Shown: piece after piece, positions 1 to 34,513 of the stretch
Numbering within the stretch: position 1 is the stretch's first letter
Layout of the letters: each line of letters opens with the position of its first letter
Translations under genes and position numbers: made by a program
Notes under the pieces: model-generated
What the model was told of the DNA's origin: nothing
Database searches by the model: none
The model's input: the letters and a program-made list of their open reading frames with translations, nothing else
Source of the DNA: Candidatus Pacebacteria bacterium UBA6180
GTDB taxonomy: Bacteria; Patescibacteriota; Microgenomatia; UBA1400; PJMF01
NCBI GenBank assembly: GCA_002422165.1
Contig: DITQ01000007.1
Location: forward strand, 1-58,546
Length of the DNA stretch: 58,546 nt
Direction of reading: 5' to 3'

Positions 1-905
1 CAGAGCCCCATGGTGTGTTGGTCGGTAGCTAGTTCTTGGTAATAGGTTTCGAGTCTTGGGTTTGAGTCGCTGCCCACGTCCTTGACTCTGTTAAAAATGC
101 CTTCTGCAAATTCGGCAGTTTCGTCGTGAATGATGGTGGGGTCGATGATGATTGGATATGCTCGATCAGGATCGGCTAGCCAGTCGGCATCAACCACCAG
201 GCGAATAGAGTATGAAGTTTCCTCATCATGCGATTTATTTAGCGCAGAAATTTTTGAACTATTTTTGTCTTCAATTTGTAATAAAACATCGTCAGTGCGA
301 TTGCCGGCAGCATCAATGGCAAATGGTTTTTCGAAGTGAAAAAGATAGTTGTTATTCCCATCATAAAAAACAGGAGAAACGAGTCCAGAGACAAACTCTC
401 TGGGGTAGGCGCCTTGAAAAATGCTATTAAAAGTAAAAACATTGTTTACGCGGCCATTTTTTTCTTGTCTTGGCTCATTTAAGATGATCTCTTCCTTGAG
501 GCCATTGGTTAGGGTTTCGTAGCGCAGGTCGACTCCTGGCTCTATTTGAGAAAAAATAATGCTATTGTTGCCTGAATTTTGAACACTGATTTGTTTATCT
601 TCATTGTCTGCAGGATAGGTAAAAACAATGTTTGCACCACTTGGTAAGCTAAAAACGACAATTGGCTTGCCCTCTCGTAAGCCCAGCTTACTAGTGAAAA
701 TTTTATTTTGAGCTTGGTATTGGTATGTTTCGTTTTTAATAGTTTTGAATCGAGGAGCTTGGGGGGGTAATCGATAAGCCCAGATTAGCAGGCCAGCAGT
801 GATTACTATAAGTGAAATTGCTAGTAAATATATGCGCCATGTAGCTGGGTTAATTTTTTTAACTTGAGTGAGCAGCTGGAGAGGTAGAGTGAGCTTTTTT
901 TTCAT
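1..905 (-). CDS. membrane-anchored hypothetical protein, C-terminal part cut off by window edge (absent from supplied ORF track)
   Basis: Hand translation of the minus strand from ATG 905-903 stays open down to position 3 (about 300 codons). It begins MKKKLTLPLQLLTQVKKINPATWRIYLLAISLIVITAGLLIWAYRLPP (signal-anchor helix). Later segments read FEKPFAIDAAGNRTDDV and DPTIIHDETAEFAEGIFNRV...YYQELATDQHTMGL. The ATG overlaps the TAA stop of the giant gene (TAATG). Confidence 0.6.
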   Translation of the reverse strand, partial: MKKKLTLPLQLLTQVKKINPATWRIYLLAISLIVITAGLLIWAYRLPPQAPRFKTIKNETYQYQAQNKIFTSKLGLREGKPIVVFSLPSGANIVFTYPADNEDKQISVQNSGNNSIIFSQIEPGVDLRYETLTNGLKEEIILNEPRQEKNGRVNNVFTFNSIFQGAYPREFVSGLVSPVFYDGNNNYLFHFEKPFAIDAAGNRTDDVLLQIEDKNSSKISALNKSHDEETSYSIRLVVDADWLADPDRAYPIIIDPTIIHDETAEFAEGIFNRVKDVGSDSNPRLETYYQELATDQHTMGL

Positions 906-3900
906 TAGTTGAGTTGAATGATCCACCAATTAAAAGTAACGTCTTGACCAAGTGGATAGTCAATGCCGACGGTAAAGATAGCATCATTTTCTGGAGTAAA
1001 AGGACTGTCAGCAATTTTGTTTTTGACGTAGAGAACCTGGTTGTTGGTGGAGTTAAGTGGTGTGACATAGATCATACTGTTTTCCTCTAATTTGGCGCTG
1101 GTGATAGTGATCTCGGTGCTGCCAGCTGGCAAAATGGCTTGACCAGCGCTTCTTTGAGCATTGACCAGCTCTCCAGAGTTAGTTGCTGTATTAACTTGTC
1201 CAAGGCGTAGGGAGCCAGTCAATGATAAATCTCCGCTGGCTGAAAAACTTGCCACAGGTTGTAAGCTTTCGTTTACAAAAGCGAAGCTGCTGTGTCTCAG
1301 ATCCTCACCATTTTCATCGAGCGTGACCAATTGTACCTGGATGTCTTCTCCTGGGCGATCGGCGCCAATTAGGTTAGTGAGCAGAGTACCTTGAGCGCGC
1401 AATTCCTCTGTCACTTCTAGAGCACCGGCTACCCGCAGGTCGCCATTTATGCTCACAAAACCCTGCGAATCAAGCTGCATTAGGCCAGCCAATAAAGATA
1501 GTTTGCCAAGACCAGCGGGCTGAATGGAGAAGGTGAAGTCGTTTTCTTCTGCTAGTTCTGGCTGGTAACTGATGAAATTGGCGCCGAAGATAGTTTGATC
1601 GCCAATCATCAGGTTTTGACCAAGCTTGAGTGAGCCAGCCATGTAAGCGCTGCCATTAACTTCGAAGTAATTTTGAATAAAAGCGCTGTCAGCGATCATA
1701 GTTAGGTCTTGGTTTAGAGTTCCGAGAGGGTCGAGGCTGGCCGCAGCAGTTGCCAGATTGACGTTGAGTTCTTGAGCCAGTTGAGTGAGATATTCATCAG
1801 TTTGTTGATTTTGGTTGCCAAAAAGAGAAGCGAGCAAGGTTGGCTGAGACAGAGTGCTTTCGATTTGACTAGTTAGTCGCTCTTGGAGACCGCTGATAAC
1901 ATTAGCGCTGATACTGTTGGCCTCGATGTTGTTGGCGTAGAGTGTGCCAGAGACGGTGGCATTTTCAAGCTCAGCAAGTTTGCTTTCGATAGAATTTATT
2001 CGAGCGGAATTGACATCTAATTCTTCAGCTTGAATTGCAGTAGCGTTGAGTTGGCCGGTAATAGTGGCGTCGGTGGCTGTTAACTGTCCAAGCTTGGTGC
2101 GCCCGTCCACTCGCAAGTCTTCTGCTACTAACAAATCACCGGTGATTTTGTTGTCGGCGTTGATAACTAATTCTTGATTATTTGTGTCAATCAAGTTGGT
2201 GGTAATTCGTTTGGCAATTAACCGCTCGCTGATGTTGACAGTTTCAGCCGCAAGCTCTTTGGTTTTGATAAAGCCAGCGGTAAGCCGGGCGACGAAAACA
2301 TCGGCAAAAGCAGCGACGCGATTACTAATGCCTGTCGGGGTGGCAACAGCGTAGCTGGTGGGGGAGCTACCTGTAAGTATTAATTCTCCTACATTGTTGA
2401 AAACAGCGCCCTGTTGGTTAACTAGGGCAGCAAGGGCAGAGATTTGCCCCTGTTGCTCTTGGATTCCGGCGGTCAGAAGAGCTTCAAAACCAGAGGGGTT
2501 ATACCACTTGTAGCCTTCTTCGTCAGTAGAAATCATGTGTGGCAGGACGCCTTCCACTTCTTGGGCAATAAAACCGTAGTTGAGCTTGTCAGAGCTAGAA
2601 CCAAATTTCTCGTGATGAAGATCGTTCCAGCGGAAGGAGATCGGGTTGAGAGCAAGAATTTTTTCTATAGAACTGCCACTTAAGTTTTCTTCGACATTTT
2701 TCAAGCGGTAGTCAGACGTATTAGTCCAGGCAGTGCCAGTTGAAAGTCCGGCGGTGCCAACAACACTAATGCGGTGAGTTCCTGGATTGGTGGTGCCAAA
2801 ACCAGTTCGCTGGTTGGCGTCAATGCGCATGGCCTCTAGGATTCCTCCACTGTTGGAGCGTGAATAAAATGCCAAATAACTATCGAGATTGCCACTTGTG
2901 GCATTTGATTTGCCTGCTTTTATGCCACCAAATCCAGCAGAAGCTCCACCAGAATTATAAACGCCACGCAGAGCAATGCCTGCCCCGCCATCAATGCTTA
3001 GGGCAGTGGTATCTTCCAAAGTGACTGTGCTAACACCACCCCCTATGGTGTTAACAAGATTAGAATAAACATGCAGTCTACTAGTACTTAGAGCTATGCC
3101 GCCAATTCCGACATTGCCATCGCCACCAATAGTCATCCTTGTAAGAGGGATGCTGCTTCCTGTAGGGACGGTGGCAAAATGCATCAGAGATCCACGCGCC
3201 GATCCAGTCCAGCTTTCTGTTGCTTGCATTTGAATGATTCCTGCATCGGCAAAAGAAGAACCATCATAGCCAGCAAAACTAAATCCACCCAAAAAGTCAT
3301 TGCTTTGTACGGCGCTGGGACTACTGAGTGTACCCCGTGCTTTTCTGACATAGCTTCTGGTTTGACCCGAATCATTACTGTATCTATCCAGATACATTCC
3401 CTGGTTGCTGCTTGAATCAGCGATTACATGCAGGGCCACATTTGGAGTGGTGGTGCCGATGCCGACATTGCCGTTTGCATCAATGCGCAGTCTTTCACTT
3501 CCTGAAGTCGAAAGGGCAAGTTGATTAATAGTTGGCCTAAACATACCGTTGTCTGGGTCGCTGGAGAAACTAAAAGCTGGAGCTGCCGCAGAACCATCAG
3601 CTGCAAGCATTAGCCTGCCAGAAGTAATGACGCTAGTGCCTCCTAACTGTAAATTGCCAGAAGTCAAATTAATTGAACCATTGATGGTAAGCTTTTGATC
3701 TGGAGTGGTGGTGCCAATTCCGACATTGCCAGTACTTTTGTCCAAATATAACTGATTGTCAAAAAATGCAATATCGCCATTAGAAGTTGAATCTGTGCCG
3801 AAGCTGAAAATATTGCTGGTCGTGTCATAGGAAATAATGCCTTCATCGGTTAGGGAAGTACCGATGTGAAGAGTGTCTCCGCCGAGGAAGAGGTCTTTCC

Positions 3901-6900
3901 AGCGTTTGGCATCGCTGCCCAAGTTTTGAGTATCGTTGACATTGGGCAACAAGTCGCCATTGGAGTTAATGGATAGCACGGTGGTTCCGTTATACGAAAA
4001 GTTAGCTAGAGTTCCATCGTGCGACAGTCCGAGATAGTTGGTACCACCACCATCATAAATGCGCAGGCTTTCGTAACCAGTAGCGTAGAGATAACTGCCG
4101 GCATCGGTCCAAGGGCTAGCCATAGAAGCTGTCGAGGCACCAGTCACATTTAGTTTGAGGTTTTGAGTTTCGCCACTAAAGTTGTACAGGCGGACGTTGT
4201 TGTCATCAGCTTGTTCGACGCGAAAGCCAGTTTCGCCAAGCCAGGTGATGCCGTATTGAGTGATATAAGTGTTGGTTTTGGTGCTGCCGCGAGCGAATTG
4301 AAAGCGGACCTTGAGTTGATTGCCTGCAGCCGGGAAAGTACAAGAGTATTCTCTCTCTGGTAGAGTGTAATTGGCGGTATCGGTGCCAACCAGAGTACAA
4401 GTGGTGTAATTGCTGCCGTTATCGACACTAGCTTGGACAGTGATGGAGTTGCTGCCATCACTGCCGTCGAGGAGTGGAGACATCCAGAGAACAGCGGAGC
4501 CAATGTTTTTGGGGAGAGTGTAAGTTTTACTGACGAAGTTGCCAGAGGTGGAGGTGGCATTGTCATCCAGACCCATAGTTTTGATTCCGCTAGCTGCGGA
4601 GCCAACGGCGTAGAGGGTTTCGCCGACAGCAAGGCTAGTTACATCTTCATCGAGAATAGAGGCTCCTCCAGAGGGTGTGTTGCCCGAAGCGATATATTTT
4701 TTGACGGCGGCGTCGCTGTTTAGCTGGATTTTGGTAAGACCTCCCAGGGTGGTGGAGTTGAGACCGACGTAGAGATATTGATTGTTGAGATCCGGAGTGA
4801 CAACTCCGACAGTGTTAGTGCCAGTACTGGCGTACTGCAGTTGCTGGTTGGTGTCTGCAGCACCGCTGGCCAAGCTTGTGCTGTGAGACTGGAGTGCACG
4901 ATAGCCCACTTGATACATATTTTTGATTTGAGCTGCCGTGAGCTCAGTGGCTGTAACCATCACCTCATCTATTTGTCCGTTAAAGTATTGAGTGCCTGAT
5001 GGGTAATATCCAATGTAAAATACATCGGTGTTATCCATACTTGAAGTGAAAGCAGTAGAATTCGCATTGTCTAGCACCCCGTCTATATAAAGACTTACTC
5101 CTGAGTTACGGTTGGCTACGCCGACAACATGGTGCCATTTCCCATCATTTACGCTAATATTGCTGTCAACTTGACTAGCAGTTGAGGCTCCATCTACATT
5201 GTAAAATCTCACTTTACCATTAGTTTGAACGTTGAGAAGATATGTGCCTGCCCCCCCCGCGTTGCCTTTTCGAATGATGCTTTGTATCGCAGCGCTATTT
5301 GATGTTTTGATCCAGGCGCTCAACGTGTAGTTTGATGTCCCCATATCCAGCTTGCTTGTTCCTCCGCACGCAGCATCAGTACAAGACATATATTCGCTGC
5401 TTCCATCAAAATCTGTTGCAGTTCCTCTAACTCCAGAAACTGAATCGCCGCCAGCTGTAATATTCGTGCCAGTTAGAACGTTGGCTTTGCTTGAGACGTC
5501 CTCAAAATCTGAGGCTGCGTTGCTGTTGTTTAGTGACCACATGCCGCGAACGTCACCAATCATCTCTTCGCTAATATAGTCTTTGGTGTAGTATTTGACT
5601 GATCCGCCTGATTCGACTGAACCATCGCCAATATTGGCACGACCTTGTTTTTCGTGTAGTGCGGTCACACCCGCAGTGGTGCCGATGTAGATAACGTTTG
5701 AATTTGGGTCGTTGGTTGATGCGAGTGGGGAAACAGATAGCGACTTGATCTCATTTGCCGCAATAGCTCCAGCAATTGACATGCCATTGGTGCTCCATCC
5801 ACCTGTTTCGTTTGAAAGCATATAAAAACCATTGCGATACTGAGCAATGGACGTCTCTGATCCAGGTATTCCATGAATGCCATAATAAACATCGAGAGTG
5901 GTGCGAGGTGCGGTGGCGTTATCTGAGGCGAGATACAAATCGCCACGTTCTGTTAGGGCAACCTTGGATGTGCGGTAGGCAGCAGCGATCTGAGATCCCA
6001 AGAAGACGTCTGCTTTGCTGCCATTTGTCTCATTAATTATGGTGGTTCCACCATCTGCGCTGGTGGCGCCGGTGGCCACCGCTACAAACTGTTTCGGGGA
6101 GACAGTGCCGGTGGCGGTCCAGGTGTAACAGTAAAATGTTGTGCTCCCTAGGTTTCCATCGGCAGCATCACTGGCTGAAATTCGTTGAGTAAAACTAGAA
6201 TTTTGAATGTTGCTTGCAATACCCGTCAATCTTTGGTTTGCATTTACACACTCTGATAAACTGCTTGGGGCAGTTGTTGTTTTTGAAGATGCTAAAGTTG
6301 TAGTTATTCTTGGCACATCATTGAATGTGTATGGTAATTTGACAGTTTCAGTAACAGTGGTTGCCGCTGCTCCTTGAATATATCCCCAGCCACTGACTGT
6401 TATTTCTTGTGTTGGCTGATTAGGGATTACAGCAGCGGCAACGTCGTTGACTTGATTTGATACAAGAGCAACAGTAGAGTTTATCGTTGTATAAGATCCG
6501 GTTGAGCTGTTTCTCCCAGAAATTGAATGTGAGTGGATGGCCTGTGATGATGCTTCAACGACAATGTTGCTATCAGTTGCGAAATTTGGTTTGACCAGTG
6601 AGCCGCTTGAAGCACCTGTCTGTCCAATATAAAGATTGCCATTGAGCATTTCTACTGATTGAGGATTTCTGCCAGTGGTTGCTCCCTGAAGATAGCCATT
6701 GGTAGTGCTGTCAAATCTCATCCACATCTTTTGGGTGTCGGCGTCAATAATGTCAACGTACCCAGCACCACCTGTGCCGCTAGCCACAACATAACTTCTC
6801 TCTGGAAATTGTTGTTTTGCTCCTCTTATTGCAGATTCTGGCTCGATATACCAAGAAGCAATTTTGAAGACGTCTCCCACGTTGTAATTAACTCCTCCAG

Positions 6901-9900
6901 TAAAAGTGACCGAGACACCAGTAGAGCCCAGGGTTTGAGTTAAGCCTGGAGTTATTGTTACTCCGGCAGCACTTTTGCCATTATAGTTAGTCCAATCAAA
7001 AGTGGTGGGGGATTTGATGGTTATATAAATTGTGCGGGGGGTAGAGTCAGTGCCAGTTGCCTTGATCAAGGAACCGTTATACTTGGTCGTCAAGTTGGGA
7101 TTTTTGTCAGCCAATGTTCCTGCTTGAGAATAGGTAGCGCTACCGGTAGCAACTGAGAGGGTGACGCCGTTATACCAATTGGGGTCGATGCCTAGTTCAA
7201 CTAGAACTTCTGGTGTGCTGTCTTGGCTTCGATCATAATAAAACGTGTCATTGACAGTATTGCTGCCGAGATAAGTTTGGCCATCATTATCAGTAGTAGA
7301 AGTGCTCATGGTTTGCCCACCCATAAGTCCAGCGCGCCCAGCTTGAATTCTTTGGTTGAGATTGATGTAATTGCTGCTGCCGTCGTCACCCAGGTCAAAA
7401 TTGTAACTAGAGGTGGTGTTGGAGCTGTCCATTTTGGTGCCATCTTCTAGTGTGTCAAAAACCATACCGGTGTGAAGCGTGTCAGTTGAGGTGTTTGTCT
7501 CTTGGGTTGGCACATAGCTGTTGAGACTGTTGTGGTATAGGCCTTTTTGAGTGTCTTTTCCTTCCCAAGCGATGGCCGGCTTGTAAGCAGCGTCGAGCAA
7601 TTTCCAGTTGCCTTGAGCATCAATCCAAGCGGAAGATAGCAAATTGCTGGTGTTGAGGCTATGGGTGACAGTGATGTAGTTACCATCAGCAATTGAGTTG
7701 GTGTTGCTGTAGAGAGTTCCTCCACAGTTGTACCAGACAGAACCGTTGTAGCATTGATGAGTGTCAGTAGTAGTATTGAAGATAATGGCTCCCTCTCCGA
7801 CAGCAGTTGGAGTCTCTGCGAAGCGTCCGACCTGCAGCTGGCCACCCATGGTGACATTGCCAGCAGCAGTAGCATTGGCTCCAATAATTGCGCTACCAGC
7901 GATGTTAAGCGCGGTTGAGACGGCTGCTGGGTCTAGAAAATAATTTTTGTTGGTAAAATCGTAGTATTTCTCAGCGTTGACAGAACCGTTGACAGTTAGT
8001 TTTTCATCTGGAGTGGTGGTGCCAATGCCCACGTTGCCACCATTATCAAGGACGAGTTGGTTGCTAATTCCATCGACGTTCACGACCAAGTCTCCATTGG
8101 AGTTCATCTGAAAATCAGTGTAAATGGAACCCTCAGTGTGAGTGAGGCGCAATTGGGGATTGCTGGCGTCAACGATTTCTAAGCGTCTGGCAGGAGTAAC
8201 AGTGCCGATCCCGACTGATCCTCCAAAAAAGCCATTATTTGCATTGATTAAGCTATTGCCAGCTAAAGAAATATTGCCAGAGGCGGCATCGAGAGTAATG
8301 TCGCCACTATCATTGGAGATAGTTGAAGTTGCCCCAGCAATTTGTAAACGACTGGTGGGATCAGCCAGGCCAATACCAACATTTCCACCACTAGTGATGA
8401 CGAATTGTGTTTGACCAGAGGCAGAAGCTGTGAAGATATCTCCCGAGCCGTTTTGTTCCAGAATGAGCGTGGCCAGGTTGGTGGCGCCAGAGAAGGAAGC
8501 GACAGCTTTGTCAGTATCGAGGCTTCTGACATCGAGAGTAGCTAGGGGGTTGGTGGTGCCGATGCCGATCTTGTTGCTTGAGCCATCTAAATACAGTAAA
8601 CCAGAACTAATATTCCAGGCGCTGCTGCCGAGGGTGGTAGTTAGGGTCGAACCAGAGAAACTAAAATTTACATCATTGTCAGTGCCGAAGTAGAGTGGTC
8701 CGCTGTCTGCTAGGTACAGACTAGAAATTTTGTTGCTTCCGCCAGAGCTAGGATTGCCTAGGGGGAGTCCTCCGAGTGGGTAAATATAGCTGCCTGCATC
8801 TACCCAGAGCGAGTCGCCACCCCCACCAGTGCCGATATCTTCCCAATCTCCGTCAGAATGTTTGAATTGCAGAGTGCCAGCGTTGTCACGCAATCCATAG
8901 CCGCTGGTGCCGATGGTTGAGCCCCAGTTTAGGTAGCTAGAAGCGGCTAGACCCAGATTTCCGCCGCTAAAGATAAAAGCATCATCGGTAGTGTAAGTGA
9001 TGGAGCCGGTGTCTCCATCAGAAGCATACATGCTAAGCACGGCATTGGCGGTGGTACCAGTGCCAATCCTAACGGCGTTGGCGCTGACATCGACGGAGAA
9101 GGGAGCGGTTAGAGAATTAGCACCAACAGCAAAATCATCACTGGTAGAAGTCAAGTGGGTGATAGTGCCAGCATCAGTCCAGAGACCTAGAGTGCCGCCG
9201 ACTATGTTGCTGAGCGCATCGTCTAGATCAAACAGCACTCCTTGGACATTAGTGGAGTTAGAGTAAGTAAATTGATCATTGGCGCCAATCAGGTAGGCTC
9301 CACTGTCAGTCGGCGAACTAATTTCTCCTAAGGCTGTGGTGCCATTGAAGATGAGTGTGTTGGGGCTAGTGATGTAGGTATTGCCGATCAAAGTTGTTGC
9401 GCCAGAGACACTAGCATCACCTTGTATGTCAACTATTCCACTCCCATCTGGAGCCAAGATGATGTCGCCATCAGAACCAGAGCTGGTTTGAATAATGATC
9501 TGATTGGCTTCAATCGTTAATCCAGAACTAGACGTTGTTGCTTTGATGACAGGGTTGTCAGTGCCCAAAACTACTTCGCCACTGCTGTTCATCATTAGGA
9601 TGGTGCTGTGAGTGGCGATTTCAGCTGGAGGGAGACCTTGGAGCGTTTCAGAGTTGAGAGCGTAGGCGACGGTGCGAATCGGCTGGCGAGGGGCCAGAAT
9701 CTCCGAGAGGACTTCGACCTCCAGCCAAACATTACTGTTTTCGGTGAAAACACTGTCGTTTATTGGCGCGCCACAGTCGTCTCCATCATTGCCGTCGCCA
9801 ACGCCAGCTCCCAAGTTGGTGTTAAAAATCCCATCCTGATCAGGGTCTATGCTACAAGTGTTGGATGACCAGAGCAGGGTTCCTCCAGTATCGGCATCAT

Positions 9901-10759
9901 AGAGGCGAAAAGTCATGTCGGTGGGCGTAGAAATTGGACTCTGGGCAGTATTGGTTAGGCGACCCTGGTAGGACAGGATCCGGTTGGGGGCGTTAGGAAT
10001 ACTTGGGTAGGCCATCGAGATCAAAGCCTGGCCGAATTGCTGATAGGCAAAATAGGCTAGACCGCCCAAAAACAAGAAGAGGGCTAGTAAGTTAAGGAGA
10101 ACGAGCAATCGACTGCTTTGTTTTTTGCTTTTACTTTGGGTTTTTAACTCTGGTTGCAGCGTTTTATTCGGTTTTTCTGCCTTTTTCTGGTCGATAATTT
10201 GGCGCTCTATTTGTTCCTGATTGGTTTGGACTGTTTCATTTTTGATGTTGGGCAAGGGAATTTCCGAGGTGAGGAGGTTTTGCTCTTTGAGCCAGATTTT
10301 GAATTGAGTGATGCTGACCAACTTACGCTTAATACTGTTTTCTTTGAGACCCTTGTCTCTCTGGTAGTGAGCAAAAGCCAATAGTTTGGGTTTGTTTCCA
10401 AGTTCGCTTAGTTTGGTGGCGCCGGTAAAATCCAAAAATTGCTTGATATCGCTTTTGTAATTGCGAATGGTGGAAGATGAGCAGCCGGTCTGCTTAACTG
10501 CTAAGAGGTAGTCGCTGAGATGCTGATTGATGTTTTTTGTTTTAGTTTGGTTGGCGAAAGTCTGACTTTGGGTTTTGTGTTGGATTTTTTGGGTGGCCAG
10601 CTGTTTTAAATTTGTTGTTTCTGGTTTGCTTAGATTTTTCCTGTCTTTTTCAACTAAAAGCGCAGCCTCAGGCTGCTTGGGTGCTTTCCAGCTAGTTGGT
10701 TTGGGTATTTTGGCAAGCATTAGTTGACTAGTCTTTTTTTCTTGTCTAATCCAGATCAT
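905..10759 (-). CDS. giant (3284 aa) membrane-anchored tail-fibre-like surface protein: integrase core-binding-like domain, TM helix, fibre repeats, LamG, internal peptidase S74 domain
   Basis: Single uninterrupted ORF in the track. Recurrent GNVGIGTTTP..L.V fibre motifs (at least 7 copies). YQGRLT...LW...PRQPI...VAYAL module follows the TM helix. LamG-like and S74-like segments are listed separately. All overlapping ORFs are short shadow ORFs. Confidence 0.9.
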   Translation of the reverse strand: MIWIRQEKKTSQLMLAKIPKPTSWKAPKQPEAALLVEKDRKNLSKPETTNLKQLATQKIQHKTQSQTFANQTKTKNINQHLSDYLLAVKQTGCSSSTIRNYKSDIKQFLDFTGATKLSELGNKPKLLAFAHYQRDKGLKENSIKRKLVSITQFKIWLKEQNLLTSEIPLPNIKNETVQTNQEQIERQIIDQKKAEKPNKTLQPELKTQSKSKKQSSRLLVLLNLLALFLFLGGLAYFAYQQFGQALISMAYPSIPNAPNRILSYQGRLTNTAQSPISTPTDMTFRLYDADTGGTLLWSSNTCSIDPDQDGIFNTNLGAGVGDGNDGDDCGAPINDSVFTENSNVWLEVEVLSEILAPRQPIRTVAYALNSETLQGLPPAEIATHSTILMMNSSGEVVLGTDNPVIKATTSSSGLTIEANQIIIQTSSGSDGDIILAPDGSGIVDIQGDASVSGATTLIGNTYITSPNTLIFNGTTALGEISSPTDSGAYLIGANDQFTYSNSTNVQGVLFDLDDALSNIVGGTLGLWTDAGTITHLTSTSDDFAVGANSLTAPFSVDVSANAVRIGTGTTANAVLSMYASDGDTGSITYTTDDAFIFSGGNLGLAASSYLNWGSTIGTSGYGLRDNAGTLQFKHSDGDWEDIGTGGGGDSLWVDAGSYIYPLGGLPLGNPSSGGSNKISSLYLADSGPLYFGTDNDVNFSFSGSTLTTTLGSSAWNISSGLLYLDGSSNKIGIGTTNPLATLDVRSLDTDKAVASFSGATNLATLILEQNGSGDIFTASASGQTQFVITSGGNVGIGLADPTSRLQIAGATSTISNDSGDITLDAASGNISLAGNSLINANNGFFGGSVGIGTVTPARRLEIVDASNPQLRLTHTEGSIYTDFQMNSNGDLVVNVDGISNQLVLDNGGNVGIGTTTPDEKLTVNGSVNAEKYYDFTNKNYFLDPAAVSTALNIAGSAIIGANATAAGNVTMGGQLQVGRFAETPTAVGEGAIIFNTTTDTHQCYNGSVWYNCGGTLYSNTNSIADGNYITVTHSLNTSNLLSSAWIDAQGNWKLLDAAYKPAIAWEGKDTQKGLYHNSLNSYVPTQETNTSTDTLHTGMVFDTLEDGTKMDSSNTTSSYNFDLGDDGSSNYINLNQRIQAGRAGLMGGQTMSTSTTDNDGQTYLGSNTVNDTFYYDRSQDSTPEVLVELGIDPNWYNGVTLSVATGSATYSQAGTLADKNPNLTTKYNGSLIKATGTDSTPRTIYITIKSPTTFDWTNYNGKSAAGVTITPGLTQTLGSTGVSVTFTGGVNYNVGDVFKIASWYIEPESAIRGAKQQFPERSYVVASGTGGAGYVDIIDADTQKMWMRFDSTTNGYLQGATTGRNPQSVEMLNGNLYIGQTGASSGSLVKPNFATDSNIVVEASSQAIHSHSISGRNSSTGSYTTINSTVALVSNQVNDVAAAVIPNQPTQEITVSGWGYIQGAAATTVTETVKLPYTFNDVPRITTTLASSKTTTAPSSLSECVNANQRLTGIASNIQNSSFTQRISASDAADGNLGSTTFYCYTWTATGTVSPKQFVAVATGATSADGGTTIINETNGSKADVFLGSQIAAAYRTSKVALTERGDLYLASDNATAPRTTLDVYYGIHGIPGSETSIAQYRNGFYMLSNETGGWSTNGMSIAGAIAANEIKSLSVSPLASTNDPNSNVIYIGTTAGVTALHEKQGRANIGDGSVESGGSVKYYTKDYISEEMIGDVRGMWSLNNSNAASDFEDVSSKANVLTGTNITAGGDSVSGVRGTATDFDGSSEYMSCTDAACGGTSKLDMGTSNYTLSAWIKTSNSAAIQSIIRKGNAGGAGTYLLNVQTNGKVRFYNVDGASTASQVDSNISVNDGKWHHVVGVANRNSGVSLYIDGVLDNANSTAFTSSMDNTDVFYIGYYPSGTQYFNGQIDEVMVTATELTAAQIKNMYQVGYRALQSHSTSLASGAADTNQQLQYASTGTNTVGVVTPDLNNQYLYVGLNSTTLGGLTKIQLNSDAAVKKYIASGNTPSGGASILDEDVTSLAVGETLYAVGSAASGIKTMGLDDNATSTSGNFVSKTYTLPKNIGSAVLWMSPLLDGSDGSNSITVQASVDNGSNYTTCTLVGTDTANYTLPEREYSCTFPAAGNQLKVRFQFARGSTKTNTYITQYGITWLGETGFRVEQADDNNVRLYNFSGETQNLKLNVTGASTASMASPWTDAGSYLYATGYESLRIYDGGGTNYLGLSHDGTLANFSYNGTTVLSINSNGDLLPNVNDTQNLGSDAKRWKDLFLGGDTLHIGTSLTDEGIISYDTTSNIFSFGTDSTSNGDIAFFDNQLYLDKSTGNVGIGTTTPDQKLTINGSINLTSGNLQLGGTSVITSGRLMLAADGSAAAPAFSFSSDPDNGMFRPTINQLALSTSGSERLRIDANGNVGIGTTTPNVALHVIADSSSNQGMYLDRYSNDSGQTRSYVRKARGTLSSPSAVQSNDFLGGFSFAGYDGSSFADAGIIQMQATESWTGSARGSLMHFATVPTGSSIPLTRMTIGGDGNVGIGGIALSTSRLHVYSNLVNTIGGGVSTVTLEDTTALSIDGGAGIALRGVYNSGGASAGFGGIKAGKSNATSGNLDSYLAFYSRSNSGGILEAMRIDANQRTGFGTTNPGTHRISVVGTAGLSTGTAWTNTSDYRLKNVEENLSGSSIEKILALNPISFRWNDLHHEKFGSSSDKLNYGFIAQEVEGVLPHMISTDEEGYKWYNPSGFEALLTAGIQEQQGQISALAALVNQQGAVFNNVGELILTGSSPTSYAVATPTGISNRVAAFADVFVARLTAGFIKTKELAAETVNISERLIAKRITTNLIDTNNQELVINADNKITGDLLVAEDLRVDGRTKLGQLTATDATITGQLNATAIQAEELDVNSARINSIESKLAELENATVSGTLYANNIEANSISANVISGLQERLTSQIESTLSQPTLLASLFGNQNQQTDEYLTQLAQELNVNLATAAASLDPLGTLNQDLTMIADSAFIQNYFEVNGSAYMAGSLKLGQNLMIGDQTIFGANFISYQPELAEENDFTFSIQPAGLGKLSLLAGLMQLDSQGFVSINGDLRVAGALEVTEELRAQGTLLTNLIGADRPGEDIQVQLVTLDENGEDLRHSSFAFVNESLQPVASFSASGDLSLTGSLRLGQVNTATNSGELVNAQRSAGQAILPAGSTEITITSAKLEENSMIYVTPLNSTNNQVLYVKNKIADSPFTPENDAIFTVGIDYPLGQDVTFNWWIIQLN
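2405..2716 (-). other. peptidase S74 / intramolecular chaperone auto-processing domain (starts at Ser2682)
   Basis: SDYRLKNVEENLSGSSIEKILALNPISFRWNDLHHEKFGSSSDKLNYGFIAQEVEGVLPHMISTDEEGYKWYNPSGFEALLTAGIQEQQGQISAL matches the family pattern SD.R.K..I..l.....l..L.pv.y.......iGfIAQEv..v.Pe.v.....g...v.Y..l..l...aiqe. Confidence 0.8.
4900..5450 (-). other. LamG / concanavalin-A-like lectin domain in giant protein 1 (aa ~1770-1950)
   Basis: GVRGTATDFDGSSEYMSC...YTLSAWIKTS...DGKWHHVVGV...LYIDGVL...FYIGY...FNGQIDEVMVTATELTAAQIKNMY is the typical Laminin_G_3 pattern (F.G....i......fTisaWik....W.hv......lYvDG......iG.......f.G.iDev.i). Confidence 0.7.
5251..5258 (-). repeat. C8/G8 homopolymer tract inside giant gene 1 (codons GCG GGG GGG GCA, NAGGAG)
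   Basis: Direct read: ctg cccccccc gc. It is the longest G/C homopolymer I noticed in the window. A G7 tract also lies at 761-767 in the downstream coupled ORF. Confidence 0.9.
10035..10110 (-). other. single predicted transmembrane helix of giant protein (aa ~217-241)
   Basis: LLVLLNLLALFLFLGGLAYFAYQQF is preceded by a Lys-rich stretch (KTQSKSKKQSSR). By the positive-inside rule the N-terminus is cytoplasmic. Confidence 0.7.
10265..10530 (-). other. phage-integrase N-terminal SAM-like / core-binding domain (aa ~77-165 of giant protein), no catalytic domain attached
   Basis: HLSDYLLAVKQTGCSSSTIRNYKSDIKQFLDFTGATKLSELGNKPKLLAFAHYQRDKGLKENSIKRKLVSITQFKIWLKEQNLL follows the helix pattern of XerC/XerD-type core-binding domains (S..T...Y..dl..F..f ... 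S...R.ls.l..F..w). Recognised by eye, not by HMM. Confidence 0.6.
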
Positions 10760-11236
10760 TAGACGGTTTTTGAAGCTTCATTTTTATTAACTTTTACTAG
10801 TCTAGATAAGCCTCGAAGTGCAGGCAAGAGGGAAGATTGTTTCGGGTTTCACTTTGTTTTCCAAAAAAGTTTAACTCGAGGAACAACCTTTCTTTTTGAC
10901 AGGTAATTTTCACGGTTTTTCATAGCTAACAAAATAGCGCAAAACAGCTCAATTTGGCAAAGTGGCCACTAAACTCTCATTTTTGTCAAAATTGTTTTCC
11001 ACAGCTTTAGTGCTTGTGAATTAACTTAATTGCAGTGTATTATGTGAAGGGAAAACTAAAAATACGGGTTTTAAACAGGTTCAATGAAGAGATCGATGGT
11101 GCTTATGATCTGGAGAGCAGAGTGTGAGTTGGTGTAAATCTGTTCGCAGGGTTGTTACAAAACAGGCTTTGGGTATTTGCAGTTGTGAAAAACTCCTTTC
11201 AGTCCTTGCCTGGCACCAGTAATATTACAGAAAAAT

Positions 11237-15098: not shown

Positions 15099-15728
15099 AT
15101 GTCAAAAATCCTGCGTTTTTTATCCTTTTTCATTCCAATCTTGATGCTCCTGGCAGGTTTAATTTTGCTTGGTCTGTCTTGGAGTAGCTTACAATCTGGG
15201 GTCGCTAGTTTGGAGTGTTTTTGTCCTTCTTGTCCAGAGACAGCAGTCGCGCAGGCTGGTGTAGCTAGTCTGGGAATGATTAAATTAGACATCCAAGGCG
15301 CGGTCAAAAAGCCTGGTGTTTACGAGTTGCAGGTTGGGCAGCGCTTAGCTGATTTAGTGGCGGCGGCGGGTGGTTTTAGTGATCAGGCTGACCGACTTTA
15401 CGTCGTCAAAACCCTCAATTTAGCCAAGGAACTCAAGAACCAAGATAAAATTTATATTCCCTTCTTCGAGGAGACTGCCGCTGCATCCAATAATACCGCT
15501 ATTCCTCAAGTAGGAAGCTCCTCTTCTGGAGAGGGTGTTGCCGACTCTGGCCTAATCTCAGTCAACACCGCCACAGCTGCTCAGCTTCAAAGTCTCTCTG
15601 GAATTGGTGAAGTTAAGTCACAGGCGATCATTGCCAATCGTCCCTACGCTAGTTTAGATGAGTTGGTTACTAAGAAGGTGATTTCAGAAAACCTATTTAA
15701 CAGCTTGGCCGAACAAATTAGCCTGTGA
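15099..15728 (+). CDS. comEA: ComEA-type DNA-binding competence protein (SLBB + helix-hairpin-helix)
   Basis: N-terminal TM helix. SLBB-like DIQGAVKKPGVYELQVGQRLADLVAAAGG. C-terminal HhH: ISVNTATAAQLQSLSGIGEVKSQAIIANRPYASLDEL. Confidence 0.85.
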   Translation: MSKILRFLSFFIPILMLLAGLILLGLSWSSLQSGVASLECFCPSCPETAVAQAGVASLGMIKLDIQGAVKKPGVYELQVGQRLADLVAAAGGFSDQADRLYVVKTLNLAKELKNQDKIYIPFFEETAAASNNTAIPQVGSSSSGEGVADSGLISVNTATAAQLQSLSGIGEVKSQAIIANRPYASLDELVTKKVISENLFNSLAEQISL

Positions 15729-15875
15729 ATTATAGGCTTTAGCGACTTTGTTTGACTGTTTGTCATTCAAGATGATTGATTGCTAAAAAGAGGCTTTTAA
15801 AGGGGTGGTGGAGCATCTTTGACTAATTTAATCAATTTGGTGACAAAAGTAGTAGTTTTCGTATCAAAAAGATAG

Positions 15876-17219
15876 ATGACTTATAAGCAATTTAAAAAAA
15901 TACAAGTTTATATATTGATCACTTTAATATATTTTATATTCACGAATAATTACCAATTAATATTTAAGACCCGAAACAGATTGACACTAGATCAAAATTT
16001 CCTCTCTCAGATCGTTTTGAGCGAAAAACTTGTTAAAAACGAAGGAACACCGAAAAATACTGGTCAAAAATGGCTTTTACAGCCTAGTGAGCTCGTGGAG
16101 GACCTCTTTGTAGGTGAATATATCAAAGAAAAACAGAGTGAGTCAGTTAGCAGACAAGTAGTCCTCATTGATAGCTCTACTTTCTGGTTAAAAAGGTTGA
16201 TTGATGAGCTTATTAAGCTTGAAAGATATTTTCTGATTTCGGTAAAAGATCGCTTCAACACCAGCCAAAAAGCCCTGCTGCATTGGCGCAATAGTTTCCT
16301 CGAGAGTCTTGAGGGGAGCCCTGACTCCAGATCTGCACCTCTGGCCAATGGACTGCTCTTTGGTGATGTCTCTGGTATTAGTCAAGATGACTATCAGTCT
16401 TTTAAAGTTATTGGGATCTTACACATTCTATCAGCTTCGTCCGCTAATTTCACCATTTTTTTGCACTTTGGGCTTTTATTTTGGCGTCCATTCCTGCCTT
16501 TCTTGACTAAAAAGCAGCTTTTTTTGCTTCATTTTGCTCTAACTTTGCTCTATTTTTCTCTGGTGGGGCCGGCACCCTCGACGACACGGGCTTTTATGAC
16601 CCTTTCTTTGTGTTTTATTGCTAGTTTCCTGTTGCAGCGAGCTAGTTCGTCTCTTTTCAATCTATACCTAGCAGGGTTTTTAATCGTATTGATCAATCCA
16701 ATTTATCTACGGGCACTGGGTTTTCAATTCTCATTTTTGGCTAGTTTTGGGATTTTATTCATGTATAGGTATTTGGAAAAAGAGCCGTGGGTAGGACAAA
16801 ATTACCTATACAGAAGCTTGCTATTAACTTTTTGCGCTCAATTTTTTTTGTTGCCAATTATGATTTATAGTTTCGCCGAAGTGAATTACATTGCCTTTCT
16901 TGCCAACCTCATTGTTCTACCTCTGGTGGAGATGCTGACTGTGATGTTTTTGGCTTCATTTATGGCTCTTTTTTTGAACAAGCTGTTGGCGTTAGTGGTT
17001 TGGCAACAGCTTTTATCCACTTTGACCTCAAACTTATTGGATATATTATTTACTCTAATTGAATTTATAGAGAAAATTCCCTGGAAAATCTTTACATTTG
17101 AGAGCAATAAAGACCTATTTACAGCTATATTTATCTTAATAGACATCGGAGGAATAATTGCCCTCAATACCTTGAAATATAAAAAGTACTCAAAAAATCA
17201 ATATAGGATTTTTAAATGA
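15876..17219 (+). CDS. comEC: ComEC/Rec2 membrane channel part (competence domain only)
   Basis: Polytopic membrane protein with LANGLLFGDVSGISQDDYQSFKVIGILHILSASSANFTIF, the hallmark of the ComEC competence domain. It stops at TGA 17217-19, overlapping the next ATG. Confidence 0.8.
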   Translation: MTYKQFKKIQVYILITLIYFIFTNNYQLIFKTRNRLTLDQNFLSQIVLSEKLVKNEGTPKNTGQKWLLQPSELVEDLFVGEYIKEKQSESVSRQVVLIDSSTFWLKRLIDELIKLERYFLISVKDRFNTSQKALLHWRNSFLESLEGSPDSRSAPLANGLLFGDVSGISQDDYQSFKVIGILHILSASSANFTIFLHFGLLFWRPFLPFLTKKQLFLLHFALTLLYFSLVGPAPSTTRAFMTLSLCFIASFLLQRASSSLFNLYLAGFLIVLINPIYLRALGFQFSFLASFGILFMYRYLEKEPWVGQNYLYRSLLLTFCAQFFLLPIMIYSFAEVNYIAFLANLIVLPLVEMLTVMFLASFMALFLNKLLALVVWQQLLSTLTSNLLDILFTLIEFIEKIPWKIFTFESNKDLFTAIFILIDIGGIIALNTLKYKKYSKNQYRIFK

Positions 17220-18211
17220 AAATGTTCCTTTTTTTAATCATCAGTATTTTTTTGTGGCGTGAATTGTATGTCAAATGGCCCGACAAGCTGCTTCACCTCG
17301 TAGTTTGCGACGTGGGGCAGGGAGATGCGATTCTATTTAGCTACATGGGGCAGCAAATTTTAATTGATGCTGGGCCAAATGACAAAATTATTAACTGCTT
17401 AAATGACAAAATGCCTTTTTGGGATAAAAAGATTGATATATTAATCTTAACTCATTATGATGAAGATCACATTGGTGGATTCAAGCATGTGGCGCAAAGT
17501 TATGAGATTGGTTATGTTTTTTTACCTCTTACCGATTATAAGGAAAGCAAGACTTTCCTCGAGTTACAAGAGCGTTTATTGGCAATGCAAGAGCTTGGAT
17601 TGAAGATCAAACAGCCGTTTTTAGGCCAACAGATTAGCTTGGTCGAATTTAAGCCTGAGTACCAGGCTAAGTACAATAGTATGCTTACTTTAGATTTAAC
17701 TTTTTTGACCCCTTTCGTGTTAGACGCAGAGCAATATGTATTACTCGAGGAAAACCAGCGTTTTGCTTGGCAAAACACCGAAACATACTTATCGGCCGCA
17801 GAGTGGCAAAAAACAGCCACTTTAGAGAGCAATAATAATGGATCTATCGCAACATTTATTCAATTTGGGGAGCTTAAAATATTACTAACCGGAGACCTCG
17901 AGTTGCCCAGAGAAGTAGCACTCATAGAGCGCAGTCTGATAGGTCGAGTAGACGTCCAAAAAGCAGGGCACCATGGGTCAAAAACCGCTTCTGGACTCGA
18001 CTTTCTTGAGGCAACTCGACCCGAAATGGGGCTAATTTCTTGCGGTCTAAACAACAAATTTTCGCACCCACATCCAGAGGTATTGAGCAATTTTGCTGCA
18101 ACTCTTACAAAAATTGTCCGCACAGATGAGTTGGGGACCATAGAAATCCTCAGTGATGGGCAGAAATTTTGGTTAAAGGACGAAAAACAAAATCTTTTGT
18201 GGAAAAAATAA
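17216..18211 (+). CDS. comEC: ComEC-type metallo-beta-lactamase nuclease domain as a separate ORF
   Basis: N-terminal TM helix, then VCDVGQGDAILF, THYDEDHIGG (HxHxDH-type) and AGHHGSKTAS motifs typical of the ComEC C-terminal MBL domain. ATGA overlap with the preceding ORF, and a TAA lies in-frame immediately upstream. Confidence 0.8.
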   Translation: MKMFLFLIISIFLWRELYVKWPDKLLHLVVCDVGQGDAILFSYMGQQILIDAGPNDKIINCLNDKMPFWDKKIDILILTHYDEDHIGGFKHVAQSYEIGYVFLPLTDYKESKTFLELQERLLAMQELGLKIKQPFLGQQISLVEFKPEYQAKYNSMLTLDLTFLTPFVLDAEQYVLLEENQRFAWQNTETYLSAAEWQKTATLESNNNGSIATFIQFGELKILLTGDLELPREVALIERSLIGRVDVQKAGHHGSKTASGLDFLEATRPEMGLISCGLNNKFSHPHPEVLSNFAATLTKIVRTDELGTIEILSDGQKFWLKDEKQNLLWKK

Positions 18212-28059: not shown

Positions 28060-29082
28060 ATGTTCAAAAGTCTTTCAAAAAAAATCGCCATCGACCTGGG
28101 AGCTGACAAAATTAGGATTGTAGCGGTTGAAAAGTTGACTGCGGCAGTGTGGGAGCTGTCTGCAACTGATTTGCGCAGTAAAATGCTCGAGGAAGATGCT
28201 TGCTTGGTGCGCAAGAAAGATTCTAAAAAAGTCATCGCTGTCGGCAGTGAGGCCTTAGCGATGCGCGGTCGCCTCGATCAATCGCTAGAATTGATTTTTC
28301 CTTTTTGGCAGAGTCGCATCATCGATCAAAAAGCCGCCAGCGATCTGCTCAAAAATTTACTGCGCAGGGTTTTTAATGGGTTGGTTTTTAGTCCCGAAGT
28401 TTTGGTGACGACGGTGGCGGCGACGACGCTAGTTGAGCAGAAACTCCTTAGTCAATTGTTTTACGAGCTAGGCTTCTCTAAGGTCCACTTGATCGCTGAG
28501 CCGCTCGCCGCCGCCATTGGCGCAGGTGTGCCGATTGCTGATTCTTCTGGCACACTGCTGTTGCACATGGGGGCGAGCAGTCTGCAATTCACCAGCATTG
28601 CCTTGGGTTCAGTGCTTTTCGTCAAACGTAGTGACCTGGCTGGTTTTCGCCTCGATCGAGCAATTCGCGACCATTTGGCGTGGCGCGAGAACTTTCAGAT
28701 TTCACTCGAGAGTGCCAAGGCGCTCAAACAGCAAGTCTTTGGCTTGCAAGATAATAAGCGCAGTTTGACAGTGATGGGCAAAAGCCAAAATGGCGCCAAC
28801 CCCCTGGAGCTTGGGATCAAAAATGAGTTGCTAACACCTGTCGCTAATCTATTTAAATTAGAGTGCAGCGCACTTCTGCAAACTTTGTTGGCAGATTTGC
28901 CACCAGAATTGACCCAAGACGTGACGCGTAAGGGCTTGCTTCTGTCTGGTGGTTTGGCCAAGGTGCAGGGCTTGGAAGAATTTTTACTCGAGGAATTTAA
29001 GCTGCCTGTGGCTTTACTTGAAGATTCAGAGCTTTTGGCAATAATGGGCGCAGCAGAAATGATGCGCAGCGGCAGTGTTTAG
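28060..29082 (+). CDS. divergent MreB/Mbl-like actin-fold protein
   Basis: IAIDLGADKIRIV, VIAVGSEALAMRGR, LIAEPLAAAIGAGVPI and LLLSGGLAKVQGLEEFL follow MreB order. The phosphate-binding motifs are degenerate (DLGA for DLGT, HMGASS for DIGGGT). Confidence 0.6.
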   Translation: MFKSLSKKIAIDLGADKIRIVAVEKLTAAVWELSATDLRSKMLEEDACLVRKKDSKKVIAVGSEALAMRGRLDQSLELIFPFWQSRIIDQKAASDLLKNLLRRVFNGLVFSPEVLVTTVAATTLVEQKLLSQLFYELGFSKVHLIAEPLAAAIGAGVPIADSSGTLLLHMGASSLQFTSIALGSVLFVKRSDLAGFRLDRAIRDHLAWRENFQISLESAKALKQQVFGLQDNKRSLTVMGKSQNGANPLELGIKNELLTPVANLFKLECSALLQTLLADLPPELTQDVTRKGLLLSGGLAKVQGLEEFLLEEFKLPVALLEDSELLAIMGAAEMMRSGSV

Positions 29083-33954: not shown

Positions 33955-34230
33955 TTATTCTTCGTCTTCGATGCCGTTGGGGTTGACGCCGAGCAGCCAG
34001 AGAACGGCTTCTTTCTTGTAGCGGCGGTCACCGCGCGAGTTGATGCGGATGGCGGGGAGTTTGCCGCGCTTGCCCCAGCGTTTGATGGTTAGAGGGGAGA
34101 CGCGCAGTAGGTCAGCTACTTCGCGGACGGTCAAGAGGTCTGGTAAGTTCTTGATATCTAGCTTATTGGCGTCGTCAGCGCGGCCGGTTCTTTTGTCGTC
34201 GTCGCTGATGATGGCGGTGTTGTCGTTCAT
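33955..34230 (-). CDS. excisionase/MerR-type helix-turn-helix DNA-binding protein (91 aa)
   Basis: LLTVREVADLLRVSPLTIKRWGKRGKLPAIRINSRGDRRYKKEAV is the HTH_17/excisionase pattern. ATG 34230 is preferred over the non-ATG start at 34395 used by the track. Confidence 0.7.
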   Translation of the reverse strand: MNDNTAIISDDDKRTGRADDANKLDIKNLPDLLTVREVADLLRVSPLTIKRWGKRGKLPAIRINSRGDRRYKKEAVLWLLGVNPNGIEDEE

Positions 34231-34513
34231 TTTGCCTTTCTGTGCGGTCTTTTTTAGACCTTGGTTATTTGTACTCCAGCCTATAACTTTAGAGGCTGGC
34301 GGTGAGAGTGGAACTTTATAGATCAAAATATTCTTTTGATCTATATCCAACAGTAACAGATTGTGACTGAGTGGGTCAAGAGGGAAAATGAGCAATTTGG
34401 CTGTTTAGACTTTTCAGAGATTTTACACAAAAGAGGCCTATATTGTTTTGTAGCGCTTGAAAAAGGCGAAATCATAGACCTATAATTTATGAGAATGATG
34501 AAATGTGGGAAAA

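Follow-up and report, generated by a model that had tools for sequence, protein, structure and literature searches.

The mosaic adhesive trimer (MAT) fibres of Bdellovibrio, in which a signal peptide precedes a beta-rich domain that is conserved and spans ~130 amino acids (aa), are trimeric proteins with S74 or non-S74 ends and with swapped adhesive tips for prey recognition (PMC10769870). How Patescibacteria, the candidate phyla radiation (CPR) bacteria, recognise their hosts and sense attachment is largely unknown, and most of the lineages are uncultured. Here, a giant fibre gene carried by a 58,546-nucleotide stretch of DNA from Candidatus Pacebacteria bacterium UBA6180 (contig DITQ01000007.1, referred to in its entirety as the window) was analysed. 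The open reading frame (ORF) in question lies on the chromosome of a Patescibacteria bacterium of Microgenomatia type and encodes a giant membrane-anchored fibre with a predicted surface location, which is very probably a MAT-like adhesin equipped with a cytoplasmic core-binding (CB) domain of the type found in tyrosine recombinases. The combination of CB domain, transmembrane (TM) helix and fibre is new, as is its pairing with a PaaX-like gene, whereas MAT or tail-fibre adhesins and bitopic DNA-binding membrane proteins are already known kinds. Neither a CB-TM-fibre protein nor a PaaX protein in Patescibacteria is described in the literature searched; a preprint on the Pam pilus refers to an unspecified 'tail fibre-like protein' near pam operons, which could not be connected to the present family.

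The window fibre resembles the MATs in being a long fibre with tail-fibre-like repeats and, as regards the S74 subgroup of MATs, in its S74 domain with an SDxxxK motif; the conserved beta-rich base at the N-terminus of its mature part is a possible counterpart of their domain of ~130 aa. In both cases, too, the host organism lives by attachment to other bacteria, and a conserved base is combined with a swapped, variable distal part, the unique middle of the window fibre being a parallel to the 'tip swapping' of MATs (PMC10769870). Conversely, MATs start from a signal peptide that is cleaved off and lack any cytoplasmic domain, whereas in the window fibre a CB domain, linker and TM anchor stand ahead of the base module. 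The window fibre is also about 3-4 times as long as a MAT, has ~540 aa beyond the Pfam S74 match as opposed to ~140 aa past the cleavage site in Bd3182, and belongs to a CPR family with one or two copies per genome rather than 21 MATs. Kinship to the MATs is supported, then, for the fibre and the S74 domain and not for the signal-peptide start by which MATs are defined.

The tyrosine recombinases XerC, XerD, XerA and IntI share the CB domain only; that of the window fibre comes without a catalytic domain, is held at the membrane and continues into an extracellular fibre. Two such domains in tandem occur in some family members. The bitopic regulators ToxR, TcpP and CadC have the same layout, namely a cytoplasmic N-terminal domain of DNA-binding type that is connected by a linker to a single TM helix in N-in orientation, beyond which lies an extracytoplasmic domain with the potential to sense the environment. 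Where the ToxR class employs an OmpR-type winged helix and a small sensor, however, the window protein has the CB fold of recombinases and a fibre of 3,000 aa, and control of promoters in the manner of that class is putative for the window head. The eukaryotic membrane-bound transcription factor MyRF, with its S74-like ICA domain, likewise has a single chain in which a DNA-binding domain and a TM segment are combined with a trimerising autoprotease of S74 type. In MyRF, however, the DNA-binding and S74/ICA domains lie on the same side of the membrane, so that cleavage frees a transcription factor, whereas the S74 domain of the window fibre is situated outside, ~2,400 residues past the TM helix, and most members of the family have none. 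Since S74 and CB domains are on opposite membrane sides, S74 cleavage cannot free the CB head.

The core-binding head and its membrane anchor

A first-pass annotation of the window had described ORF 905-10759 as having a CB domain at residues ~77-165 followed by a Lys-rich linker, one TM helix and about 3,040 extracytoplasmic residues, and subsequent analysis bore this description out. Pfam model Phage_int_SAM_1 (PF02899) matches residues 89-160 with 33.1 bits when the N-terminal fragment is searched and 27.9 bits with the whole protein, in each case above the gathering threshold of 22.3, with weaker support for the domain from the Pfam SAM_4 and SAM_5 models. The NCBIfam XerD, XerA and XerC models match with their N-terminal ~100 positions only (~2-110 of 263-300). 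In an AlphaFold2 (AF2) model of the head (residues 1-522), prepared from 17 sequences, the confident parts are a helical bundle at residues 77-159 (pLDDT 80-93), a 31-residue helix at 217-247 and a beta-sandwich at 262-361, and the head outside these parts is predicted to be disordered. Compact Foldseek matches of the helical part include XerA (5hxy), integron integrase 2a3v and phage integrases, with those of phage-integrase type having rmsd values of 2.8-3.6 A over ~100 columns at a Foldseek probability of 1.0; a protein named 'Core-binding (CB) domain-containing protein' was matched also (probability 0.99, rmsd 12.1 A).

A profile of 75 CB units from the family, when compared with the PDB, returned a Xer-like N-terminus (1.3e-6), 3nrw and the core-binding domain of lambda Int (2oxo). 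A Xer-like CB domain also makes up residues 6-98, at the N-terminus, of the 401-aa chain 14 of PDB 9i5v, which is named 'Ribosome-associated translation inhibitor RaiA' and is possibly another non-canonical CB context, or else a naming quirk. Signature positions of the CB domain are conserved (T97, N100, Y101, D104, Q107, F108, R145, K146, F153 and W156), with K or R retained at positions 99, 102, 123, 145 and 146, and the CB units are net basic, with a mean charge of +4.6 and 87% of them positive. The conserved polar and basic residues sit on two long predicted helices (95-112 and 140-159), whose counterparts in the CB domains of Cre, Xer and lambda Int are helices B and D, which contact the groove. 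Judged from these sequences, the CB head may still bind DNA or nucleic acid. The flanks of the domain are Lys-rich and disordered, and the distance from CB domain to TM helix has a family median of 85 aa; a disordered linker of this length could, by our own estimate, reach tens of nanometres, which would be expected to matter in an ultrasmall cell.

The initial statement that both the protein and the window are without an R..HxxR..Y catalytic domain was also substantiated, in that the PF00589 Phage_integrase domain was found neither in the giant protein nor in the other window ORFs scanned, and no remnant of it was detected. As regards membership of the tyrosine recombinases, the protein has the CB domain and does not have the catalytic domain with its R-H-R-Y active site.

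The predicted signal-anchor is the only segment of TM-grade hydrophobicity in the protein, with a Kyte-Doolittle value of 2.41 at residue 218 as compared to 1.36 for the runner-up. Averaged over 81 heads of the family, K+R amounts to 4.4 in the 20 residues ahead of the TM helix, versus 1.0 in the 20 residues after it. Since this constitutes a clear positive-inside signal, the N-terminus is assigned to the cytoplasm, and an N-out topology, which the first-pass annotation had named as a refuting outcome, is not predicted. The juxtamembrane motif that follows the helix (Table 1) is conserved throughout these heads, with A250 present in 80/81, P252 in 81/81, and P258 and R260 each in 79/81.

The start codon of the giant gene is probably the ATG at 10720 (M14), which gives a protein of 3,271 aa. 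This codon is preferred over the listed ATG at 10759 because homologues begin at an aligned 'MPAK...' that coincides with the position of ATG 10720, and because ATG 10759 falls within a conserved non-coding box. Close relatives differ by a 1-nt indel in the stretch between the box and the start, which rules out that this stretch is coding. The CB domain is downstream of both candidate starts and is translated either way, and protein conservation in this frame is family-wide; translation from a point beyond the domain, the other concern raised at the outset, is accordingly not indicated.

The fibre family and its divergent partner

The ~3,040 extracytoplasmic residues begin with a conserved base module, which weakly matches the NCBIfam model Bdello_MAT_N (NF053851), with an E-value of 7e-5 (22.6 bits, for a cut-off of 60). 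The module is present also in Planctomycetes, Zixibacteria, Anaerolineae and Kiritimatiellae, where proteins named 'tail fiber domain-containing' carry it straight after an ordinary cleavable signal peptide. Since these non-CPR relatives carry a signal peptide before the same module, the CB-linker-TM head is a CPR-specific innovation that stands in place of the signal peptide. Further along the chain, the GNVGIGTTTP repeats, LamG domain and S74 domain noted initially were all recovered. The G-x-[VIF]-G-[IF]-G fibre repeat occurs six times, and the PHROG tail-fibre family phrog_9942 is matched (E 7e-21); Laminin_G_3 matches residues 1804-1946 (E 2e-28), with laminin LG matches among PDB sequences; and Peptidase_S74 (PF13884) scores 38.5 bits against a threshold of 22, with the SDxxxK motif intact as SDYRLK. 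When the whole protein was compared with PDB sequences (phmmer), the best matches were 8ol4 (2.5e-7), 8ond (2.4e-6), 8oml, 8ojn and 8on4, five Bdellovibrio structures that align to residues 2413-2680, immediately ahead of the S74 cleavage serine, and that represent the fibre tips of Bd2439, Bd2133, Bd1334 and Bd3182 (PMC10769870).

Trimerisation, host binding and surface location of the fibre are predicted by homology, as is the role of the S74 domain, where present, as a folding chaperone that would cleave at Ser2682. Some 600 residues lie C-terminal of this serine, and the domain thus does not form the chain end from which ~140-160 aa would be expected to be released. The additional region contains a very weak, below-threshold match to Bactofilin (residues 2865-2948, E 0.28), and its C-terminal ~400 residues recur in ~11 loci, such that the 'released chaperone' beyond S74 may have a function of its own.

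The distribution of the protein was examined by several means. A word-indexed search with the head identified 16 Patescibacteria proteins of the same layout (CB domain, linker, TM helix and conserved ectodomain module), nearly all of which are cut by contig ends and several of which are named 'site-specific integrase, partial'; contig-end fragments bearing the name "site-specific integrase" inflate mobile-element counts in CPR genomes. A scan of one genome per GTDB species with a 7-sequence alignment of the base module then confirmed 211 loci, each in a different species representative, of which 80 were retrieved for analysis. Their record titles include Microgenomates, Woesebacteria, Pacebacteria, Shapirobacteria and Patescibacteria. 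Many loci bear evidently wrong placeholder titles, such as 'uncultured Pseudomonadales', and the nearest relative (locus L001) bears the title 'TM6 ... GWF2_28_16' despite a GC content of 40.6% over its 11.5 kb; public organism labels look unreliable in this respect.

In every locus the base module is located 107-508 aa into an ORF, and the ORFs reach >3,900 aa. Phage_int_SAM_1 was detected upstream of the module in 80/81 heads (best E 9e-27), and a hidden Markov model of the family detected at least one CB unit in 81/81, with two tandem units in 16. At four loci (L037, L052, L069 and L071) a separate ORF of ~166 aa, situated upstream on the same strand, supplies the initial half of the CB domain or else an additional CB unit, which could reflect a split head or an assembly frameshift. 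An exhaustive HMMER search of 1.84 billion representatives yielded 253 clusters (50% identity) at E<=1e-30, a number that rises to 887 at E<=1e-10, and the proteins reach 7,697 aa in length. The fusion persists across roughly 20-75% identity, which argues for selection for the joining of CB domain and fibre. An artefact of assembly or annotation was considered and is excluded, given that the same design is kept across 80 independent genomes. The survey went further than the suggestion that had motivated it: the claim of an unusual design was, if anything, under-stated, and the CB-TM-fibre protein is a conserved Patescibacteria family rather than an oddity of a single genome. With at least 211 species representatives, the family is a concrete and widespread candidate for host recognition in CPR bacteria.

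When the window protein was compared in tiles with the 80 related loci, residues ~100-500, comprising head and base, proved common to 56-80 loci, and the repeat regions (residues 700-1000 and 2300-2500) to about 20-40. The central region with the LamG domain (residues ~1000-2200) was matched in 0 loci for 11 of its 12 tiles and in one locus for the other, and is missing even from the nearest relative. The S74 region is common to 3-5 loci, and the S74 motif [ST]SD.R.K is absent from all 20 complete ORFs of the family. On this sequence comparison, the ectodomain is best described as an adhesin of MAT or tail-fibre type that consists of a conserved base and a fast-evolving specificity region. Each member would thus combine a fast-evolving, host-range-determining fibre with a conserved base that is joined through the membrane to a domain of DNA-binding type, and is paired with a regulator.

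The regulator is the product of the divergent partner gene, which, along with the elements of the intervening spacer and the probable true start codon, goes beyond what the first-pass annotation had reported. The 247-aa protein matches no Pfam or NCBIfam family even at E<=10, and curated PaaX sequence models do not match it. However, its AF2 model (pLDDT 85, pTM 0.75) finds E. coli PaaX (8a39) as the best Foldseek match (E 4.9e-7, probability 1.0, 259 columns), ahead of 3l09 and Rv0674, and the N-terminus matches the winged-helix (wHTH) protein DsvD. Several homologues have been named PaaX by JGI, and PF20803 is recorded in 2/55 homologues. The model thus points to a PaaX-fold regulator, which is like members of the PaaX family in its full-length fold of three domains and winged-helix N-terminus, and differs from them in that there are no phenylacetate genes nearby.

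The partner divergently adjoins the giant gene in 61/80 loci by tblastn, at 27-61% identity. A divergent ORF of ~260 aa occupies the same place in 8 of 16 seemingly partner-less loci and is a remote homologue (hhalign 95.6%, E 1.2e-8), so that, after profile comparison, the partner is present in at least 69 of 77 evaluable loci and is always divergent. In a reciprocal test that started from two distant partner homologues, the divergent neighbour in each case was a protein of >2,500 aa with Phage_int_SAM_1, and in one case with S74.

The two genes are separated by a spacer of ~500 bp, which measures 450-660 bp in nearly all loci and 477 bp in the window, and which contains blocks that are invariant at the nucleotide level among relatives whose proteins are only 50-65% identical. 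The conserved box GTCTAATGATCTGG, for which the family consensus is GTCTAATGA(A)TCTGG, is located ~35-45 nt upstream of the probable start of the giant gene and 445-560 nt from the start codon of the partner. Its core, GTCTAAT, was found in 56/80 upstream regions as opposed to 2/68 coding controls. The strict box is present in 39/61 loci with a recognisable partner and in 0/16 without one (Fisher 1.6e-6, with no correction for phylogeny).

A leader RNA or riboswitch in the spacer was considered and rejected: there is no Rfam match in the spacer at E<=1, RNAalifold detected 0 conserved pairs among 37 instances of the box, and a palindrome that extends the box (GTCTAAT-N7-ATTAGAC, 10744-10764) is confined to 10 close relatives. 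With no conserved RNA pairing and no Rfam match, the box is more likely a protein-binding or promoter element. An inverted pair of operators bracketing the spacer was also rejected, the partner-proximal CCAGAT copy being limited to close relatives, and so was a regulon within the window, where the box occurs once (chance expectation 0.3).

Possible roles of the head

A mechanism can be envisaged in which the fibre trimerises with its base held in the membrane of the epibiont, while the unique middle, LamG domain and tip bind surface structures or glycans of the host cell. Were the CB head to bind DNA, a DNA-binding module would be placed directly beneath each fibre, as in the ToxR/CadC class, and the state of the fibre, be it export, clustering or host engagement, could feasibly feed back on transcription, with the fibre's own divergon as the most plausible target and the PaaX-like partner acting alongside. 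We favour this composite, a host-binding anchored fibre with a CB head that binds DNA and couples fibre state to transcription, while giving it slightly less than an even prospect of being correct; its DNA-binding and regulatory step, taken by itself, is tentative and somewhat doubtful. The evidence linking contact to gene expression is circumstantial, and consists of the basic CB surfaces, the conserved partner regulator and the conserved box. The more specific proposal, that the head, carried by each fibre or left behind in the membrane after processing, is a contact-sensing transducer which acts at the GTCTAATGA(A)TCTGG box or another chromosomal site and reports fibre export or host engagement together with the partner, seems unlikely as it stands. 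If it is true, contact-sensing one-component systems would gain a class not known before and restricted to epibiotic bacteria of ultrasmall size. Should the head bind DNA, it would be the first recombinase core-binding domain to serve as a membrane-tethered, non-catalytic module, and contact-dependent gene control in CPR bacteria would become directly testable with purified domains.

Several observations weigh against the coupling of fibre and DNA. The whole-model Foldseek E-values of the head (0.016-0.3) are not significant, with the best matches having probabilities of 0.84-1.0 and rmsd values of 2.8-4.5 A; the weak E-values are attributable to half of the 522-aa model being disordered. Recombinase CB domains taken in isolation are, in general, weak DNA binders. 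The box is no more than a candidate target of the CB domain, and its co-occurrence with the partner means that it may simply be the partner's operator. The near-invariant Ala250, if it were the -1 residue of a signal peptidase site, would uncouple head from fibre. On the extracytoplasmic side, the score of Bdello_MAT_N on the base module is far under the NCBIfam cut-off (22.6 versus 60 bits), and S74 is present in a minority of the family only and cannot belong to a general signalling mechanism.

A head that binds no DNA at all, in which the CB fold has been co-opted for cytoplasmic anchoring, oligomerisation or as an aid to export, is a serious if unlikely alternative. Such a head might hold three chains in register before export, dock to a cytoplasmic or membrane partner or, by protein-protein contact, retain the PaaX-like regulator at the membrane much as in the Mlc-PtsG case. 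Consistent with these roles, a flexible linker always keeps the CB domain close to the membrane, the domain is sometimes duplicated, its strongly conserved aromatic and hydrophobic positions are core residues, the conserved partner protein is a candidate binding partner, and the box follows the partner without being tied uniquely to the CB domain. However, the basic surface positions are kept family-wide, in line with the net positive charge of 87% of the CB units, and retention of the non-core Xer signature (T97, N100, D104, R145 and K146) would be unexpected for a spacer or plug; and the literature searched offered no instance of a CB domain that serves protein-protein contacts alone. Alternatively, the head may be an over-sized signal sequence from which signal peptidase releases the fibre by cutting after Ala250, the fibre then joining the wall via its base module, as has been proposed for MAT fibres, and one CB-TM remnant per exported fibre staying in the membrane, to be degraded or else freed by intramembrane proteolysis as a soluble, DNA-binding reporter of export. 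Ala250, a possible if non-canonical -1 residue, is followed by [YF]-P in the 80/81 heads that have it, and the base module comes directly after a cleaved signal peptide in the non-CPR relatives and in MAT proteins (PMC10769870). Conversely, the uncharged run at the TM helix has a median length of 29 aa (16-36), which is that of an anchor rather than an h-region, and residues +1 to +10 are conserved as strongly as the putative site itself, suggesting a structural motif. Moreover, position -3 is Pro in 31/81 heads and Q, K or E in 13 more, all of which are non-canonical for signal peptidase I. A cleaved pro-region appears unlikely, and retention of the head as part of an anchored fibre is preferred.

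Non-specific binding by the head could also tether the nucleoid, or incoming DNA, to the base of the fibre, and might thereby position the chromosome at the attachment pole or effect the handover of DNA taken up through ComEA/ComEC. The CB domain and its Lys-rich flanks are basic, and comEA, comEC and a gene for a metallo-beta-lactamase (MBL) domain are located 4-7 kb upstream in the window. Yet the competence genes are adjacent in 13-17 of the closest relatives only, which fits shared ancestry rather than a functional linkage, and nothing else in the conserved gene pair relates to DNA transport, making a tether of this kind very improbable. Barely credible is a mobile-element relic, that is, a recent fusion of prophage tail fibre and integrase, or a degraded integrase, with a head that has no cellular role. 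The PHROG tail-fibre and S74 matches and the public 'site-specific integrase' names of fragments are what would be expected of such a relic, and a domesticated prophage fusion had been entertained in the first-pass annotation. As a recent event, this origin is not supported by the data: a scan of 2.9 million viral contigs returned nothing that encodes the base module, the ectodomain is closest, among solved structures, to cellular MAT fibres, the fusion is intact in 80/81 species over deep divergence without a catalytic remnant, and the neighbours of the giant locus are housekeeping genes whose synteny is conserved, the remainder of the window encoding LeuRS, ThrRS, ribosomal proteins L1, L10, L11 and L7/L12, NusG, Mur ligases and MreB.

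Coordinates and neighbouring genes

Table 1. Features of the giant fibre locus and adjacent genes, with positions in the window
Feature	Position	Strand	Remarks
Giant fibre ORF	905..10759	(-)	Uninterrupted, 9,855 nt; 3,284 aa from the listed start
N-terminal cytoplasmic extension, aa 14-76	10532..10720	(-)	Lys/Gln/Thr-rich, predicted disordered (pLDDT <50; 19% Lys)
Xer-type core-binding (CB, SAM-like) domain, aa 77-165	10265..10531	(-)	Four to five helices; Pfam, NCBIfam, AF2, Foldseek
Lys/Gln/Glu-rich disordered linker, aa 166-216	10112..10264	(-)	
Single TM helix, signal-anchor, aa 217-247	10019..10111	(-)	N-in; helix pLDDT 85-89
Juxtamembrane motif L-A-[YF]-P-x-x-P-x-x-P-N-R, aa 248-260	9980..10018	(-)	Nearly invariant
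Beta-sandwich fibre-base module, aa ~261-380	9620..9979	(-)	Conserved; AF2, shared with non-CPR proteins
Proximal tail-fibre repeat region, aa ~700-1000	7760..8662	(-)	GGNVGIGTTTP-type repeats at aa 792, 847, 908
Lineage-unique central region, aa ~1001-2200	4160..7759	(-)	From tile map against 80 related loci
LamG / concanavalin-A-like lectin domain, aa 1804-1946	4922..5350	(-)	Inside unique region
Distal fibre region, aa ~2300-2680	2720..3862	(-)	Further GNVGIGTTTP repeats; similarity to Bdellovibrio MAT fibre-tip beta-helices
S74 intramolecular-chaperone / autoprotease domain, aa 2682-2741	2537..2716	(-)	Catalytic motif SDYRLK, aa 2682-2687
Post-S74 region, aa 2742-3284 (~540 aa)	908..2536	(-)	Unusually long; coiled or beta-helical repeats
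Spacer	10721-11236		Conserved length; nucleotide-invariant blocks, three AAACCCG repeats, promoter-like hexamers, box
Conserved 15-nt box	10751..10764	(-)	GTCTAATGATCTGG; family consensus GTCTAATGA(A)TCTGG
~75-nt nucleotide-invariant block	10995..11071		Back-to-back promoter-like hexamers and one of three AAACCCG repeats
Divergent partner gene, 247 aa	11237..11980	(+)	Predicted PaaX-fold winged-helix regulator
comEA (SLBB+HHH_3) and comEC competence genes	15099-18211	(+)	comEC as two ORFs with 4-nt overlap

The two comEC ORFs encode the Competence domain (15876-17219) and the metallo-beta-lactamase domain (17216-18211), an arrangement that is common to the closest relatives. A second giant ORF (34514-43303, minus strand) encodes a protein of 2,929 aa with an N-terminal hydrophobic signal and no CB head, in which three Laminin_G_3 domains are accompanied by three near-identical repeats of ~330 aa ('NSFQRKTWYDG.RHWRSYY...'); a MerR-type HTH gene (33955-34395) is situated directly downstream of it. 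The window also encodes an 892-aa Mur-ligase protein (30440-33118, minus strand) with MurD-like N, M and C domains at residues 454-867, the ~450 residues ahead of which have no Pfam match, and this gene is followed by a second, Mur-ligase-like gene at 29079-30443.

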